Translations under genes and position numbers: made by a program
Shown here: positions 23,655 through 30,833 of the stretch, in pieces
Position numbering within the stretch: position 1 is the first letter of the stretch
Layout: every line of letters begins with the position of its first letter
The notes under the pieces: model-generated
The model's input: only the letters and a program-made list of their open reading frames with translations
What the model was told of the DNA's origin: nothing
Databases searched by the model: none
Assembly: GCA_963798485.1 (NCBI GenBank)
Contig: CAWCTR010000017.1
Location: 244,512-308,511 of the forward strand
Source: an uncultured delta proteobacterium
Lineage (GTDB): Bacteria; Desulfobacterota; Desulfomonilia; UBA1062
Direction: 5' to 3'
Length of the DNA: 64,000 nt

Positions 23655-24492
23655 ATGGACAATAAAGACGGATATCTTATGGATAATCCCGACGAAGCAT
23701 TAAGGCTTGATGTGAAGACTGACCCCGATGCGGTACGAAAGCAGGCGCTCCTGTGTGGAATCGGACCCGGAGCGAGGATCCTTGATGGCGGATGTGGTTC
23801 TGGGAAGACGACATCCATACTCTATGAGATGAGTCAGCCGAATGGGTTCACTATGGGTGATAGATTATTCCGAGGATCGCATTCGCTTTGCAAAAGAGCA
23901 CTACGGAAAAACAAATGGTATCGGATTCTTACAACGGGATCTCAGGGGATCCCTTGCCGACCTTGGACAGTTTGATTTCATATGGATCCGGTTCGTTTTA
24001 GAACACTACCGAGAAGGGGCCATTGATATAATCAAGAACATCACAGCTTGCCTGAGACCGAATGGAAGTTTATGCCTGCTTGATCTCGATTACAATTGCC
24101 TGAGCCACTTTCCAATGAAGCCCGAGATGGAATCGATGCTCCAGAAACTGATAGGTAAGATGATGAATAAGTTCAACTTCGATCCATTTGTGGGCAGGAA
24201 GCTCTACACCTATCTCTATGACCTCGGATACCGGCACATCGAGGTAAATCTCTTTCCCCATCACCTGATCTACGGAGAGCTCAGATCCAGTGATGACTTT
24301 AACTGGATCAAGAAGATAGAGATGGCCTCAATGAAGGCAAAGGACCTTTTTCAGGAATACCCGGGTGGTTATGATACCTTCTTCCATGACTTCAATACAT
24401 TCTTCCATGATCCGAGGAGGTTCACCTATACCCCCCTCATGATATGTACCGGGAAAAAACCGAGAAATAAATTGAAAATACCGTCTGAGTAA
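23655..24492 (+). pseudogene. Class I SAM-dependent methyltransferase interrupted by a 1-nt frameshift (or sequencing error)
   Basis: ORF 23655..23975 has motif I (LDGGCGSG); ORF 23842..24492 continues IDYSEDRI...FDFIWIRFVLEH...LRPNG; removing one base near 23857-23859 joins them. Confidence 0.8.
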
Positions 24493-24620
24493 TATAGTAT
24501 TGAAATCAAGAATATAATAGTATAGTAATATCACAAGGTGTATAGTATAATGAAGATAAACGATATCTTGATATTATTCTATATTATTCTTCATATTAAG
24601 GCATAGGGGGATTAACAACA

Positions 24621-25451
24621 GTGAGTCTGAATTATTTAAATTGGAAAGATGAGCATAAGTCAACACTAGAAACTTTTCCGAATAAGAAAGTATTGATGCT
24701 GTACACGGGAGGAAAAGACAGTTCAATCATCTTGCATTTTCTCCTTTCCGCAGGGAAAGAGTTTGGGTTTGATTTCGACACAATTGCTGCAACTTATCCG
24801 AATCAAGTTTTTCCAGATAGTGAGATAAAAGAGCTTGATACCTACTGGCGTTCAAAGAATATAGAAATCAAATGGCATAATCTGAACACCTCCGATTCAT
24901 TGCTTTCAGATGCTGAGAAGGATGGGAAAAATCCATGTTATGTTTGTCATAAGATAAAGAGGGACTACCTTTTAACCCTATTGCGTGGGATTGAACAACA
25001 AAATAAAGATATTATCATTATTTTAAGTTTTACCCTATGGGATCTCGTAAGCTATACGGTTGAATATCTGGTGGGCGGAATTTACAGCCAGAAAAGCAAT
25101 AATGAAAATCATAATGAAAAATCTCCTGAACAGAGATTTATCGAAACATCTCAACGTTTCTATCCGGTTATACAATTGAAAGATGACCTTACAATCTTCA
25201 AGCCTCTGCTGAAGTATAATGACAACGAAATATCGAAAATAGTAACCGAAGAGAAGATCCCCTTATCACGTGCAGTATGCACATATAAAAGATTTACGCC
25301 GAAACGCATATTGTCTGATTACTATCATCAAATAAATGCAGATTATGATTATGATAATGTATTAAGGTATGCGAAAAGCTCCCTTAAATTGAATGAAATA
25401 TCTTATTACACGGATCTTGCTAAAGACGATTTCATAAAAAATGTGTTATAG
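24621..25451 (+). CDS. Divergent PP-loop ATPase (TtcA/TilS-like adenine nucleotide alpha hydrolase)
   Basis: LYTGGKDS PP-loop, NPCYVCH..KR, IFKPLL. Confidence 0.7.
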   Translation: MSLNYLNWKDEHKSTLETFPNKKVLMLYTGGKDSSIILHFLLSAGKEFGFDFDTIAATYPNQVFPDSEIKELDTYWRSKNIEIKWHNLNTSDSLLSDAEKDGKNPCYVCHKIKRDYLLTLLRGIEQQNKDIIIILSFTLWDLVSYTVEYLVGGIYSQKSNNENHNEKSPEQRFIETSQRFYPVIQLKDDLTIFKPLLKYNDNEISKIVTEEKIPLSRAVCTYKRFTPKRILSDYYHQINADYDYDNVLRYAKSSLKLNEISYYTDLAKDDFIKNVL

Positions 25452-27598: not shown

Positions 27599-27902
27599 TG
27601 AATACATCTCCATTTTTCCTTTAGTGTTGTGACCATTACTTCAGGGTGAAGATCATAAATAGAGATTTGTAAGAAACTCCTGATCTTTTTTGAGGAAACT
27701 GAAATCTTACCCCGCTAAAGCACACTTTCTCCCACACCAGCATGATCAGTTCATTATGAAAGAATCACTTAATGTTTTACCCTCATAATGACGATACTTT
27801 TAAATTAGTAAAGATATATAATTTTCTAAAAAGGATCCTGAGAGCCTATAATTTTTTTGATGTTAATAAATATATGTATCACCTGAAAGGCAGCATGAAT
27901 AT

Positions 27903-30833
27903 ATGAATGGTAGCCACCATGAGTTACCACGACTCTATAATGTTCGTATATTCCGGACGAACATCGAATACCTGGAAAAATTTTATCCAGAGATAAATAT
28001 TGATGATGTTCTGGCATTTACAGGTGTTACCAGATCTGAAATTGATGATGATGGATATTGGTGCACACAGGAGCAGGTCGACCGTTATCATAAGAAAATA
28101 GTTCATCTCACAAAAAATCCTAACATCACACGGGAGACAGGAAGATATGTACTATCATCCCGCGCATATAGTACCCTCAGACAATTCATTTTCGGATTCA
28201 TATCTCCATCAATGGCCTACTCCCTCCTGCCTAAGATCCATGCAAAGGTCAGTAAGGGTGCCACAATAAAGGTAAACAATCTAGGACCCAGCAAGGTCGA
28301 GGTTATTGCAAAACCTGCCCCGAATGTTTCAGAAAAACCTTATCAGTGTCTGAATCGCCTTGGCCAATTTGAAGCCCTCAGTGCAATACTGGCTGGAAAT
28401 TATGCAACGGTTGAACACCCTCAATGCTTTCACCAGGGTGATGACGAGTGTCAATACATCATATCGTGGGTTGAACCCCTGTTTTTAAAGATTCGCCGGT
28501 GGAGGAATTATTTCCTTCTCTACGGTATAATAATGTGTTTGATCTTATCATTTTTTCTTTCCCTTCCCGATGATCTATTATTGTTGTTCGCTTTTCTTTT
28601 GCTGATTATTTCTCTTACTAATGTTGCGATACAGTTTGAAAGTAAGGTCTATAAAATGCAGGTTTCAGACCAGGCACGTACGGCTGAGCGCCTGATGCAT
28701 GAAAGCAACATCCGGAGAAATGAGGCAATACTTGTCCAGGAGATTGGACAAGCCATTTCTTCCATTCAACATATCGATACATTTCTTTCAACAATTATGA
28801 GCACTATCGAGCATCGGCTTGAATTTGACAGGGGCATGGTACTCCTTGCGAATAATGAAAAGACCCGCCTGATATATAAAGCCGGATTCGGATTTACCCA
28901 GGAACAAGAGGATATCTTCATTCAAAACTACCTCCACCTCGACCGCCCCGAGTCCAAGGGCCCTTTTGTAATGGCTTTCAGAAGCAAGAAACCTTATTTT
29001 GTGGAGGATATTAGTAAGGTGGCCGATGAACTGTCTGAGAGGAGCCAGGGGCTTCTCCAGTTGTCCGGCACAAATTCTTTCATCTGCGTCCCTATTATTT
29101 TTGAGGGTGAGCCCCTCGGTGTTCTTTCGGTTGATCGCGCCAATACATCTTCCCCGCTTAAACAAAGTGACCTTGATACACTCATGGGTATAGCTCCCCA
29201 GATCGCCATAAGTTTGAATAATGCCAGAATATATGAAATGTTGCAGGAGAGTAAGCAGGAGTACCATAACCTTGTCGAGGGAGCCAACAGTATCATTCTC
29301 AGGCTTGATACGAGAGGCATCATAACCTTTGCAAACAAATATGCTATGGATTTTTATGGATATTCGAGATCCGAAATGATTGGGAGAAATGTTGCGGGTC
29401 TGATCGTGCCTGAGAAAGATAACAAAGGGAGAGACTTTCATGTTCAGATGGAAAAATATTTGAAGAATCCTGAACGTTATATCACCCTGGAAGCCGAGCA
29501 TCTCCTGAAAGACGGAAAGTCTGTATGGGTAAGCTGGAGCAACAAAGCGATCAGGAATAAAGATGGTTACATCACAGAAATCCTCAGTGTAGGCAATGAT
29601 ATTACCTCGCGTAAACAAGCCGAAGAAGAAAAGAGACAGCTTGAAGATCAGTTGGTAAGGGCACAGAAGATGGAGGCCATCGGTGCATTGGCCGGTGGTG
29701 TGGCCCATGACTTGAACAATATTTTAAGCGGTATCACGAGTTATCCCGAACTTCTCCTTATGGAAATCCCGGAGGGAAGCCCCATGAGGAAGGCGGTACT
29801 AACCATCAAGAAATCCGGAGACAAGGCTGCCGCCATTGTCCAGGACCTTCTCACCCTTGCCCGCAGGGGGGTCAATATCTCGAATGTAGTTGATCTGAAT
29901 ACTATAGCAAGAGACTACTTTGAGAGTCCGGAGTTCTCAAAACTCCAGGAATATCATCCTCATACTAATTTTGAGATCAGGCTTGAAGATGAACTCAAGT
30001 ATATACTAGGTTCCGAGATACACCTCGGGAAGACCCTGATGAACCTTGTTTCGAATGCAGCCGAGGCTATGTCCAATGGTGGCACTGTTACGGTGAGCAC
30101 CGGCAACAAGTATCTTGAAAAGCCTCTCAAAGGCTATGATATGGTATCCCAGGGTGAATATGTGGTTCTTACCGTTGCTGATACCGGCATTGGGATTTCA
30201 GAAGATGACTTAAAGAAGATTTTTGAGCCGTTCTTCTCAAAAAAGACAATGGGCAGGAGCGGTACAGGTCTTGGCATGACGGTTGTCTGGTCCACCGTAA
30301 AGGACCACAAAGGTTACATAGACGTAGAGAGCGAGGAGGGCAGGGGAACCAGATTTAACCTCTATTTCCCAGTCACCAGGCACATCCTTAAAGAAAAAAA
30401 CGCTAAGGGATCGATCCAGGATTATTCAGGCACGGAGCATATCCTTGTCGTGGATGATGCCGAGCAACAGCGGGATATCACCAAGAATGTGTTAATGAAG
30501 CTCGGGTACAAGGTGGATATAGCCATGAGCGGTGAAGATGCTGTGGAGTTCATCAAACTGTATGCAGTAGACCTTGTTATACTCGACATGATTATGAACC
30601 CCGGGATAGATGGTTTGGAGACCTATAAAAGGATGCTTGCCGTACGGGGTCTCCAGAAGGCCATTGTCGTAAGTGGTTTCTCTGAGACAGATAGCGTAAG
30701 AGAAGCCCTTAAACTGGGTGTGGGGGCATATATTCGTAAACCCTATGCCTTAAGTGATCTTGCTAAGGCGGTAAGGTCGGAACTCGATAAGACAAAAGAC
30801 ACACTTCCCTGTCCACCAGTATCAATACCATAA
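27903..30833 (+). CDS. Hybrid sensor histidine kinase (V4R-like N-domain, 2 TM, GAF, PAS, HisKA, HATPase, REC)
   Basis: [15 protein letters not shown]4R-like motif; [26 protein letters not shown]-terminal receiver. Confidence 0.92.

Follow-up and report, generated by a model that had tools for sequence, protein, structure and literature searches.

In a 64-kb stretch of DNA from an uncultured delta proteobacterium (contig CAWCTR010000017.1, positions 244,512 to 308,511; hereafter the window), four co-oriented genes were found by open reading frame (ORF) calling on the + strand at 23655-30833. They encode, in this order, a class I S-adenosylmethionine (SAM) methyltransferase, a PP-loop ATP pyrophosphatase, a 692-residue protein that associates PilZ domains with a double GNAT fold (designated PilZ-GNAT below) and a 976-residue sensor hybrid histidine kinase whose N-terminal domain resembles H-NOX proteins. 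The genes for the PilZ-GNAT protein and the sensor are linked across several orders, most often together with the methyltransferase and, in a minority of genomes, with the PP-loop gene. We give about an even chance to the reading that this cassette is a local module of cyclic diguanylate (c-di-GMP) signalling, in which the sensor would set c-di-GMP, the PilZ domains would gate the acyltransferase, and the methyltransferase and a sulfur insertase would share a substrate. A previous, sequence-only reading of this DNA had also described four co-oriented genes; all four are present, but the methyltransferase gene is split by a frameshift.

The PilZ-GNAT protein

For the product of the PilZ-GNAT gene (25520..27598, + strand), Pfam gives a single PilZ match (residues 235-338; 23.0 bits for a cut-off of 22.5) and none in the C-terminal half; PF07238 is matched by 18 of the 24 family members, with a best E-value of 3.6e-10. 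A model built from a 75-sequence alignment (predicted local distance difference test, pLDDT, 87.3; predicted TM-score, pTM, 0.83) displays three beta-barrel domains at residues ca. 14-125, 128-221 and 246-323, the third of which is closed by a helix at 328-342. By Foldseek, this N-terminal half resembles YcgR, MrkH, MotI and VCA0042, which are c-di-GMP receptors of the PilZN+PilZ type (E about 1e-7), and VIA comparison of residues about 231-347 with isolated PilZ domains in their c-di-GMP-bound form gave Z-scores of 12.8 for 4xrn (root-mean-square deviation, rmsd, 1.9; 100 aligned residues) and 12.5 for Alg44. Residues ca. 346-660 (26555..27499) adopt a double (tandem) GNAT fold according to Foldseek and VIA. 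Based on this model, the predicted architecture is a PilZN-like domain followed by two PilZ domains and a double GNAT, in agreement with the earlier description of the protein as a tandem-PilZ, GNAT-like one.

The second barrel (residues 128-221; 25901..26182), delimited from alignments and predicted secondary structure, carries an RxxxR motif (R135-Q-A-K-R139) that is invariant in the 75 sequences. The third, a PilZ domain of canonical fold according to Pfam and VIA (residues 231-342; 26210..26545), carries an RxxR motif (R235-N-P-R238) that is at least 90% conserved, together with the pattern N/D-h-N/T-x-x-G. At the site corresponding to [D/N]xSxxG, barrel 2 reads E-F-N-P-T-G, and barrel 3 reads N-I-N-S-S-G in the window and D-I-T-T-S-G in most relatives. 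The N-terminal half may bind c-di-GMP.

The C-terminal half matched VipF (6wqb, E 3.2e-9), the clavulanate tandem GNAT 2wpw (7.3e-9), the GlcN N-acetyltransferase 5kf1 (1.1e-8) and 7q3a (1.8e-7) in Foldseek searches, together with MAB_4324, NMT and Eis; NAT16/HisAT ranked first with VIA (9emd; Z 13.6, rmsd 4.5, 259 aligned residues, model residues 340-664). The structural matches in this analysis carry 7-20% identity and say nothing about the substrate; those of the C-terminal half are consistent with a possible acyltransferase. A sequence-profile search of the PDB with the C-terminal half returned nothing below E 1, and an Atlas search returned only clusters without names, plus Acetyltransf_1 as a weak lead (0.85). 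In GNATs, acyl-CoA is bound through a Q/RxxGxG/A motif; here, the loop that follows the strand at 421-429 reads K-R-M-G-L-K-I-T-G, with G433 at least 90% conserved and G438 invariant. The C-terminal half retrieves 321 protein clusters, nearly all of ca. 700 residues and nearly all named hypothetical, and 1098 representative clusters were found at E-values of at most 1e-3, 365 of them at 1e-30 or less. Two proteins of ca. 1210 residues (P0310 and P0361) display NERD and Ser/Thr protein kinase domains ahead of the double GNAT, with a Pfam PilZ match in P0361 only.

The H-NOX-like sensor

The sensor hybrid histidine kinase (27903..30833, + strand) comprises, according to Pfam, GAF (residues 291-438), PAS (453-567), HisKA (595-655), HATPase (704-825) and REC (847-958) domains, the first ca. 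200 residues being without match. A hydropathy scan revealed a hairpin of two transmembrane helices at residues 201-247 (28503..28643); its loop is very short, and the N-terminal domain and the GAF-PAS-kinase part are therefore placed on one side of the membrane, the cytoplasmic one.

The N-terminal domain (residues ca. 10-195; 27930..28487) was modelled with a pLDDT of 87.7, and the top 43 among the Foldseek matches listed correspond to H-NOX or soluble guanylate cyclase (sGC) H-NOX domains (E 3.6e-7 to 1e-4, TM-score 0.57-0.75, ca. 190 columns); the similarity extends along the entire domain, with TM-scores of 0.64-0.75 for the H-NOX matches at E 3.6e-7. Lower matches were the phenol-sensor domain of MopR (E 1.2e-4) and TRAPPC3 (E 5e-4). 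In 49 sensors from several orders, the positions conserved at 90% or more include C149, H172, C175, H177, C183, G80 and G154. When profile-aligned to the Shewanella H-NOX (4u99), H172, C175 and C183 fall on the Zn ligands H161, C164 and C172, and C149 falls on C139 by register. Zn ligands and hinge glycines are described for the So and Vc H-NOX proteins (Shewanella and Vibrio) in the available passages of PMC7108781, the So ligands being Cys139, His161, Cys164 and Cys172. The same passages report that the proximal haem-ligating histidine (His103 in So H-NOX) is absolutely conserved in 598 H-NOX sequences, and that in haem-free Vibrio H-NOX oxidation is signalled via the Zn-Cys site to HnoK, which controls a c-di-GMP phosphodiesterase (PMC7108781). 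In the 49 sensors, no position between residues 95 and 120, where the equivalent of this histidine is presumed to lie, has more than 11 His, and the only positions with at least 50% His are 52, 63, 172 and 177. Pfam HNOB was matched by none of 14 members at E-values up to 10. The Zn ligands, which are those of the Cys3-His/Gln subgroup, and the hinge glycines being kept and the proximal histidine not, the domain is thus best described as an H-NOX homologue with a Zn switch and without the canonical haem ligand.

The N-terminal domain had earlier been taken for a V4R-like ligand-binding domain. A fold of a ligand-binding type is indeed predicted, but it is H-NOX-like overall, and the V4R similarity (PF02830) is weak and limited to the last ca. 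40 residues: the window protein scores 12.4 bits for a cut-off of 31, other sensors reach at best 25.2 bits, and weak matches occur in 12 of the 14 members with a best E-value of 7.9e-5. Arabinose_bd is matched in 5 of these 14, and a word-indexed search with the domain retrieved only 7 proteins.

In 40 sensors, a common core made of the H-NOX-like domain, the hairpin and GAF, with or without PAS, is followed by a variable output: a hybrid kinase in 25 cases (5 with Hpt), HD-GYP in 11, a class III cyclase in 3, while one is cut by the contig end. Of the 11 fused sensors, 10 have intact HD...GYP motifs and the eleventh is cut. HD-GYP proteins sharing the N-terminal domain of the window kinase, which the sequence-only reading had proposed to look for, thus make up 11 of the 40.

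Linkage and distribution of the cassette

A scan of one genome per species over GTDB yielded 478 confirmed PilZ-GNAT places. Linkage was counted in the best-scoring 80 loci, which are not independent lineages and which include Desulfomonilia, Syntrophales, Smithella, Syntrophaceae, Desulfobacteraceae, Desulfatiglandales and strain NaphS2; in relatives, gene starts were taken from the longest ORF. Where at least 1500 bp of downstream sequence was available, the sensor gene lies immediately 3' of PilZ-GNAT in 48 of 61 loci and elsewhere in the locus in 3. The codon for sensor residue 11 occurs within 30 nucleotides (nt) after the PilZ-GNAT stop in 28 of 52 loci, and the two frames therefore abut or overlap in these; the gap in the window is 304 nt. 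In the 31 loci with flanks of 5 kb or more upstream and 6 kb or more downstream, the methyltransferase occurs in 22, the sensor in 25, both in 22 and the PP-loop gene in one. The methyltransferase is found in two positions, either upstream on the same strand (11 loci) or downstream and convergent (31 loci).

A REC-HD-GYP gene is located 3' of the kinase in 8 of the 80 loci, with HD...GYP motifs intact in all 8. Four of the five Hpt-carrying kinases belong to such REC-HD-GYP loci (L088, L089, L114 and L115) and the fifth (L120) has such a gene too. No conserved exporter was seen in the cassette among the best 80 loci. Another recurrent neighbour of PilZ-GNAT is an acyl-CoA dehydrogenase gene (15 of 80 loci), mostly located just upstream on the same strand in Syntrophales-type loci.

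Closer to the window genome, the 692-residue protein was matched in 22 of 41 related genomes, including 20 of the 24 of its own family. Twelve of 20 fetched loci of relatives share a block consisting of genes for a universal stress protein (USP), a lipoprotein, a Zn-ribbon protein, an RF-1-domain protein, the methyltransferase, the PilZ protein, the kinase, a MemTrans protein and a HAD protein; the PP-loop gene is present in none of these 12 syntenic loci. The remaining 8 correspond to a second, non-syntenic PilZ-GNAT paralogue.

The methyltransferase gene

In the window, the methyltransferase gene (23655..24492, + strand) occurs as two overlapping frames (23655-23975 and 23842-24492), and Pfam Methyltransf_11/12/25 match its C-terminal part. 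The protein (METHYLTRANSFERASE) is broken where these frames overlap, between ...EMSQPNG and VIDYSEDRI.... All 12 translated orthologues of relatives run in a single frame across the break point, and 17 intact orthologous ORFs were found, of 269-343 residues. Because the orthologues are uninterrupted in one frame, the window gene is considered to carry a +1 frameshift near 23841-23858 (+ strand); one surplus base in this interval explains the shift and preserves the spacing of the orthologues. Four sets of peat-metagenome contigs, which are low-depth fragments of related strains 95-99% alike, were also compared: one contig matches 23686-23859 free of gaps and ends there. No second copy of the methyltransferase was found in the window genome. 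As judged from a draft assembly and low-depth contigs only, the methyltransferase thus appears to be inactivated in this genome by the frameshift.

The nearest solved relatives of the methyltransferase are small-molecule enzymes, namely a phosphoethanolamine N-methyltransferase (E 9.5e-20), 3mgg and a juvenile-hormone-acid methyltransferase. With NCBIfam models, every score was far under the model's own cut-off.

The PP-loop protein

The PP-loop gene (24621..25451, + strand) encodes a 276-residue ATP pyrophosphatase that matches Pfam ATP_bind_3 under the cut-off (E 1.6e-4). Its scores with NCBIfam models are likewise far below the respective cut-offs: 31.5 bits for 272 with TtcA (NF007972), 24.7 for 93.6 with TilS-N and 16.2 for 150 with LarE; an orthologue obtained 30.6 bits with the TtcA model. 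A TtcA-like gene scoring 232 bits (30 bits for the PP-loop gene) is located on another contig of the window genome. This far better candidate and the sub-cut-off score rule out that the PP-loop protein is TtcA, and its earlier description as a divergent PP-loop enzyme was correct.

The family comprises 113 clusters, all of ca. 270 residues and all from 'Deltaproteobacteria'-type metagenome bins. In 48 sequences, the xGGKDS motif is conserved (G31, K32, D33 and S35 invariant, G30 and S34 at 90% or more), as is a CxxC...C trio (C106 and C220 invariant, C109 at 90% or more). PDB profile matches, which cover the N-terminal ca. 120 residues only, include 8cnz (E 5.4e-5) and the [4Fe-4S] U34 tRNA thiolase 6scy (E 0.011). 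According to the available passages of PMC9283937, [4Fe-4S]-dependent sulfur insertases such as TtuA and the LarE of Thermotoga maritima are recognised by a PP-loop combined with a CXXC-C trio; in these two, the cysteine trio binds a [4Fe-4S] cluster and the oxygen of the adenylated substrate is replaced by cluster-bound sulfide (PMC9283937). The PP-loop protein belongs to a separate family of ca. 270 residues and, judging from its motifs, is a putative [4Fe-4S] sulfur insertase.

Its distribution is patchy, with 6 of 122 genomes at class level and 5 of 401 at phylum level; in 40 relatives of the window genome only weak matches to other PP-loop enzymes were found. An insertion unique to the window genome is ruled out by the finding that the same slot between the methyltransferase and PilZ genes is occupied in other genera. 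The order methyltransferase, PP-loop, PilZ, kinase recurs in three other genomes (L047, L048 and L050) and two partial copies stand at contig ends, one with methyltransferase, PP-loop and PilZ genes (L049) and one with the first two (L044), so that the co-occurrence of the four genes elsewhere, on which the sequence-only reading had depended, is established. In other arrangements, the PP-loop gene precedes the methyltransferase (L139), both are faced by PilZ-GNAT (L091), the PP-loop gene precedes the methyltransferase a few kb downstream of the sensor (L101), or it lies behind the REC-HD-GYP gene (L120). In L140 and L142 its neighbours are other GAF/kinase sensors, in L141 it adjoins a kinase fragment at a contig end, and its surroundings in L051 were uninformative. 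Counting L059, a duplicate of L047, only once, 9 of the 13 places outside the window are beside the methyltransferase and/or within 8 kb of PilZ-GNAT, 8 of them beside the methyltransferase and the ninth near PilZ-GNAT.

In L101 (13728-16760), the PP-loop gene was matched in two frames (15084-15509 and 15503-15910), which suggests that it carries another frameshift, and a partial second copy of the methyltransferase (13728-14018, minus strand) adjoins the full one.

Divergence and paralogues

Within the block, PilZ-GNAT diverges fastest, with 39-54% identity between congeners versus 70-92% for the flanking genes; the kinase and the methyltransferase are intermediate. In a tree of 24 PilZ-GNAT sequences, the syntenic copies are incongruent with the species relations, and a monophyletic clade of non-syntenic paralogues from the same genus forms the sister group (100/100) of the window copy, which is 65-70% identical to the non-syntenic paralogue versus 39-51% to syntenic copies. 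A recent replacement of the window copy by a non-syntenic paralogue is disfavoured, the window copy being outside the paralogue clade and syntenic copies being generally this divergent.

Non-syntenic paralogues occur in varied contexts, without the sensor or the methyltransferase. An AMP-binding acyl-CoA ligase gene is found near 3 of 6 that were examined, and genes for a GGDEF protein, an acyl-CoA carboxylase and an enoyl-CoA hydratase were also detected near paralogues. The window genome itself has a second PilZ-double-GNAT gene (contig C8, 69719-71752; L013, 9657-11762) that is 66-67% identical to the window copy and belongs to a clade confined to the genus among the tree rows. No methyltransferase, PP-loop or H-NOX-like sensor gene is located beside it; it adjoins a divergent gene for a 900-residue multi-PAS histidine kinase, beyond which lies an AMP-binding acyl-CoA ligase gene.

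Genomic setting

The cassette is flanked upstream by genes for the USP, the lipoprotein, the Zn-ribbon membrane protein and the RF-1-domain protein, and downstream by genes for Mem_trans, HAD and HtpG. The upstream block (21654-23553) consists of the divergent USP gene and genes for a 193-residue lipoprotein, a 110-residue Zn-ribbon protein with a C-terminal transmembrane helix and a 121-residue RF-1-domain protein (ArfB/peptidyl-tRNA-hydrolase-like); this block accompanies the cassette in Desulfomonilia-type loci, not in Syntrophales-type ones. Downstream, the longest ORF of the HAD-hydrolase (31852-32562) overlaps the end of the Mem_trans gene (30974-31933) by 82 nt; the true start is probably located later because relatives align only from residue ca. 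30-35. Further recurrent neighbours in the best 80 loci (L055-L134) are an ABC ATPase (20), a divergent Na/Pi cotransporter-PhoU gene (10), a B12-binding radical SAM protein (10), rubrerythrin (9) and a MerR-like 276-residue protein located immediately upstream (7).

The AT-rich character of this DNA that had been pointed out earlier is real: GC content is 24.2% in the spacer between the methyltransferase and PP-loop genes, 34.9% in the PP-loop gene, 42.9% in PilZ-GNAT and 44.7% in the kinase gene, versus 50.6% in the genome. Rfam gave nothing at E-values up to 1 over 21000-33000, repeat searches gave short pairs at chance level with no terminal repeats or element ends, and promoter and terminator scans were not above shuffles. 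PADLOC returned a generic methyltransferase-domain match (mad2) and sub-threshold rows, and nothing specific.

In the spacer between PilZ-GNAT and the kinase gene, all four metagenome contig sets display, relative to the window, a 1-nt insertion after 27618 and an A-run longer by 1 nt near 27700; a 1-nt indel accounts for the apparent loose ends at 27691, through an end-of-stretch effect. The genome is a draft assembly of 32 contigs, 97.5% complete and 7% contaminated, in which the contig pairs C5/C31 and C29/C22 gave identical tblastn matches to a generic methyltransferase query, which hints at duplicated or redundant contigs.

Proposed function and alternative readings

In the mechanism that we favour, the cassette would be the window's version of a c-di-GMP module conserved in Desulfobacterota-type anaerobes. 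The cytoplasmic, membrane-tethered H-NOX-like domain, with its Zn-Cys3His site and no conserved haem-ligating histidine, would perceive an intracellular cue, for which redox or oxidant stress and a small hydrophobic ligand are the likeliest candidates. It would act through GAF-PAS on an output that sets c-di-GMP, which in relatives would be an HD-GYP phosphodiesterase, either fused or reached via a hybrid kinase and a REC-HD-GYP protein, and in the window a hybrid kinase with REC. The adjacent and often translationally coupled PilZ protein would read c-di-GMP and so gate the double GNAT as an acyl-CoA-dependent acyltransferase. The methyltransferase, joined in a minority of genomes, the window included, by the [4Fe-4S]-type PP-loop sulfur insertase, would work on the substrate or product of the acyltransferase. 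The sensor is most simply placed upstream of c-di-GMP and of the PilZ protein because of their linkage, the frequent overlap of stop and start, and the HD-GYP outputs. The retention of the methyltransferase in two arrangements across orders argues for a function shared with PilZ-GNAT and the sensor and, since the PP-loop gene sticks to the methyltransferase, the two enzymes probably share a substrate or product.

Several observations weigh against this reading. The window sensor ends with kinase and REC domains and has no HD-GYP, no REC-HD-GYP or diguanylate cyclase gene was found within the window cassette, and the signal could flow in the reverse direction. The sensor is missing in 10 of the 61 evaluable loci, non-syntenic paralogues among them. 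In the PilZ domains, the RxxR spacing of barrel 3 differs from the canonical RxxxR, and the Ser of [D/N]xSxxG is replaced by N or T in both barrels. For the C-terminal half, no Pfam GNAT family was matched at E-values up to 1 in the 24 members, no canonical acyl-CoA-binding motif was identified, the loop after strand 421-429 being different, and a common fold alone shows no function. Finally, the frameshift in the methyltransferase gene may indicate that the cassette is decaying in the window genome.

Other readings assign a different role to the acyltransferase. It may be a second-messenger-gated protein acyltransferase, acting on lysines or N-termini, that tunes acyl-CoA metabolism or stress proteins, the methyltransferase and the PP-loop protein being separate from it. 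We regard this as fairly unlikely, since it leaves aside the methyltransferase that is tied to PilZ-GNAT and the sensor in two arrangements across orders, and the PP-loop gene that is found beside the methyltransferase in 8 of 13 other places and near PilZ-GNAT in a ninth. Nevertheless, some double GNATs, among them NMT, Eis and VipF, modify proteins, and 15 of the 80 loci have an acyl-CoA dehydrogenase gene as a neighbour. Non-syntenic paralogues are found near AMP-binding acyl-CoA ligases (3 of 6), enoyl-CoA hydratase and acyl-CoA carboxylase genes, and in the family of the window genome the cassette is consistently accompanied by the divergent USP gene. A cAMP-gated mycobacterial acetyltransferase (Pat) is cited as an analogue in the available passages of the PixB paper (PMC8316039).

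Alternatively, and with a lower probability that we would call slight, the enzymes could make a small lipophilic signal under c-di-GMP control through PilZ, and the neighbouring H-NOX/V4R-like pocket would bind that signal, as in an autoinducer-type pair. The tight linkage of synthase-like and receptor genes, their co-occurrence in other genomes and the distinction of the PP-loop protein from TtcA all agree with such a pair, as do the fast divergence of PilZ-GNAT and its departure from the species relations, which resemble those of specificity-diversifying signal systems. In addition, 8 loci have a kinase followed by a REC-HD-GYP gene, which is the RpfC/RpfG layout of diffusible signal factor (DSF) signalling. 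The signal could be, for instance, an N-acyl amine or amino acid produced by the double GNAT, to which the PP-loop enzyme would add a thio modification and the methyltransferase, whose nearest solved relatives act on small molecules, a methyl cap; the best structural neighbour of the C-terminal half, NAT16/HisAT, N-acylates a free amino acid and takes acyl chains up to myristoyl/palmitoyl in the available text of PMC12219266. Hydrophobic ligands are bound by relatives of the sensor fold, namely haem by H-NOX, phenol by MopR (5kbe) and, according to its entry title, palmitate by TRAPPC3 (6aq3). However, the invariant features of the sensor are the Zn-thiolate site and the hinge glycines that are typical of redox- or gas-type H-NOX proteins, not a defined ligand pocket, and the domain lies on the cytoplasmic side of the transmembrane hairpin in a cassette where no conserved exporter was seen. 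HD-GYP outputs are frequent and place the sensor more naturally upstream of c-di-GMP, the PP-loop gene occurs in only 1 of the 31 loci with full flanks and the methyltransferase is broken in the window.

More doubtful still is a complete loop of signal synthesis and perception in strict anaerobes by means of a new lipophilic molecule, with a haem-free H-NOX homologue as the receptor. Its successive steps, which share this low probability, would be N-acylation of a small amine or amino acid from an acyl-CoA by the c-di-GMP-gated double GNAT, conversion of the carboxylate into a thiocarboxylate by the [4Fe-4S] PP-loop enzyme in genomes that have it, capping by the methyltransferase, binding in the haem-less H-NOX-like pocket of the adjacent sensor and resetting of c-di-GMP by way of HD-GYP or a phosphorelay. 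If true, the loop would represent a new class of autoinducer or metabolic-state signal, and the fast, tree-incongruent divergence of the synthase would correspond to specificity types.

The genes could finally be chance neighbours or a laterally acquired AT-rich islet composed of a tRNA thiolase, a housekeeping methyltransferase and unrelated regulators, or else a defence or mobile element. This is very improbable: the genes remain linked in several orders and in more than one arrangement, they stand in a stable chromosomal synteny, neither terminal repeats nor an Rfam element nor a specific PADLOC match was found, and a far better TtcA-like gene exists elsewhere in the genome (232 versus 30 bits). 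What speaks for it is the PP-loop gene, with its low GC content (34.9% versus 50.6%), its patchy occurrence (6/122 and 5/401 genomes) and its nearest named models, which are, weakly, tRNA-modifying enzymes.

Significance

All the domains described here are of known kinds. In a literature search that left most subscription journals outside, no paper was found on this gene combination, nor on a haem-histidine-less H-NOX-like domain fused to a kinase, HD-GYP or cyclase. Likewise, the PilZ-double-GNAT fusion was not found in print as a large family, including in the available part of the PilZ-domain survey 10.1101/814665, and neither was a fixed pairing of PilZ-GNAT and sensor with a methyltransferase and, at times, a sulfur insertase.

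To our knowledge, few c-di-GMP effectors have an enzymatic output, and among PilZ-GNAT proteins only PixB has been studied. The PilZ-double-GNAT family described here is much larger and is genetically connected to a defined sensor that often has a c-di-GMP phosphodiesterase as its output; the two would provide a local-signalling pair amenable to direct tests in little-studied anaerobes, syntrophic or related to sulfate reducers, of peat, sediments and digesters. The sensor would extend the H-NOX family by a haem-histidine-less, Zn-thiolate form fused to kinases, HD-GYP and cyclases, and bears on how H-NOX proteins may sense redox state without haem. The presence of a linked methyltransferase and of a putative sulfur insertase suggests that a small molecule or a protein is modified.

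Comparison with known systems

RpfC/RpfG-type relays consist of a hybrid kinase with Hpt followed by a REC-HD-GYP protein, and a sensor kinase followed by a REC-HD-GYP gene is what likens 8 of the 80 cassette loci to them. They differ in that the input domain is another one and no RpfF-like synthase was seen, and the window kinase has neither Hpt nor an adjacent REC-HD-GYP gene. With the [4Fe-4S] PP-loop insertases (TtuA, NcsA 6scy, TtcA and the LarE of T. maritima), the PP-loop protein has the PP-loop and the CxxC...C trio in common, but the similarity is restricted to the N-terminal ca. 120 residues and its context is a signalling cassette instead of tRNA or cofactor genes.

The two-GNAT fold of model residues ca. 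340-664 is shared with the double GNATs NAT16/HisAT (9emd), VipF (6wqb), 2wpw, 5kf1, NMT and Eis, although identity is only 7-13%, rmsd values are 4.5-8.9 Å with moderate TM-scores, and these relatives carry no PilZ fusion. As a rule only one half of such enzymes is active, and their substrates extend from amino acids to proteins, NAT16 acylating the amino group of free histidine and accepting long acyl-CoAs, as described in the available passages of PMC12219266.

The H-NOX/HnoK/HnoB systems of Shewanella and Vibrio have in common with the cassette sensor the fold, the hinge glycines and the Zn site (C149/H172/C175/C183 compared to Cys139/His161/Cys164/Cys172). There, H-NOX controls a histidine kinase that acts on a c-di-GMP phosphodiesterase, according to the available part of PMC7108781. 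H-NOX is a separate protein in these systems whereas the cassette domain is fused in cis to the transmembrane hairpin, GAF-PAS and output; it also lacks a counterpart of the conserved proximal histidine and a Pfam HNOB match, and its partner effector is the PilZ-GNAT enzyme.

The closest architectural analogue is PixB of Myxococcus xanthus (MXAN_2604), in which, as in the cassette protein, two PilZ domains precede an acyl/acetyltransferase domain. PixB has a single GNAT that is recognisable from sequence, while the double GNAT of ca. 320 residues in the cassette protein is invisible to Pfam and is likened to it by architecture; the cassette protein has an additional PilZN-like domain at its N-terminus. 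The available passages of the PixB paper name no H-NOX-like sensor, methyltransferase or PP-loop partner for this protein (PMC8316039). They report that PixB binds c-di-GMP in vitro, that its acetyltransferase domain is essential for function and that both PilZ domains keep the Arg motif without the Ser of the second motif (PMC8316039), a Ser-less state in which the two barrels of the window protein resemble those of PixB.

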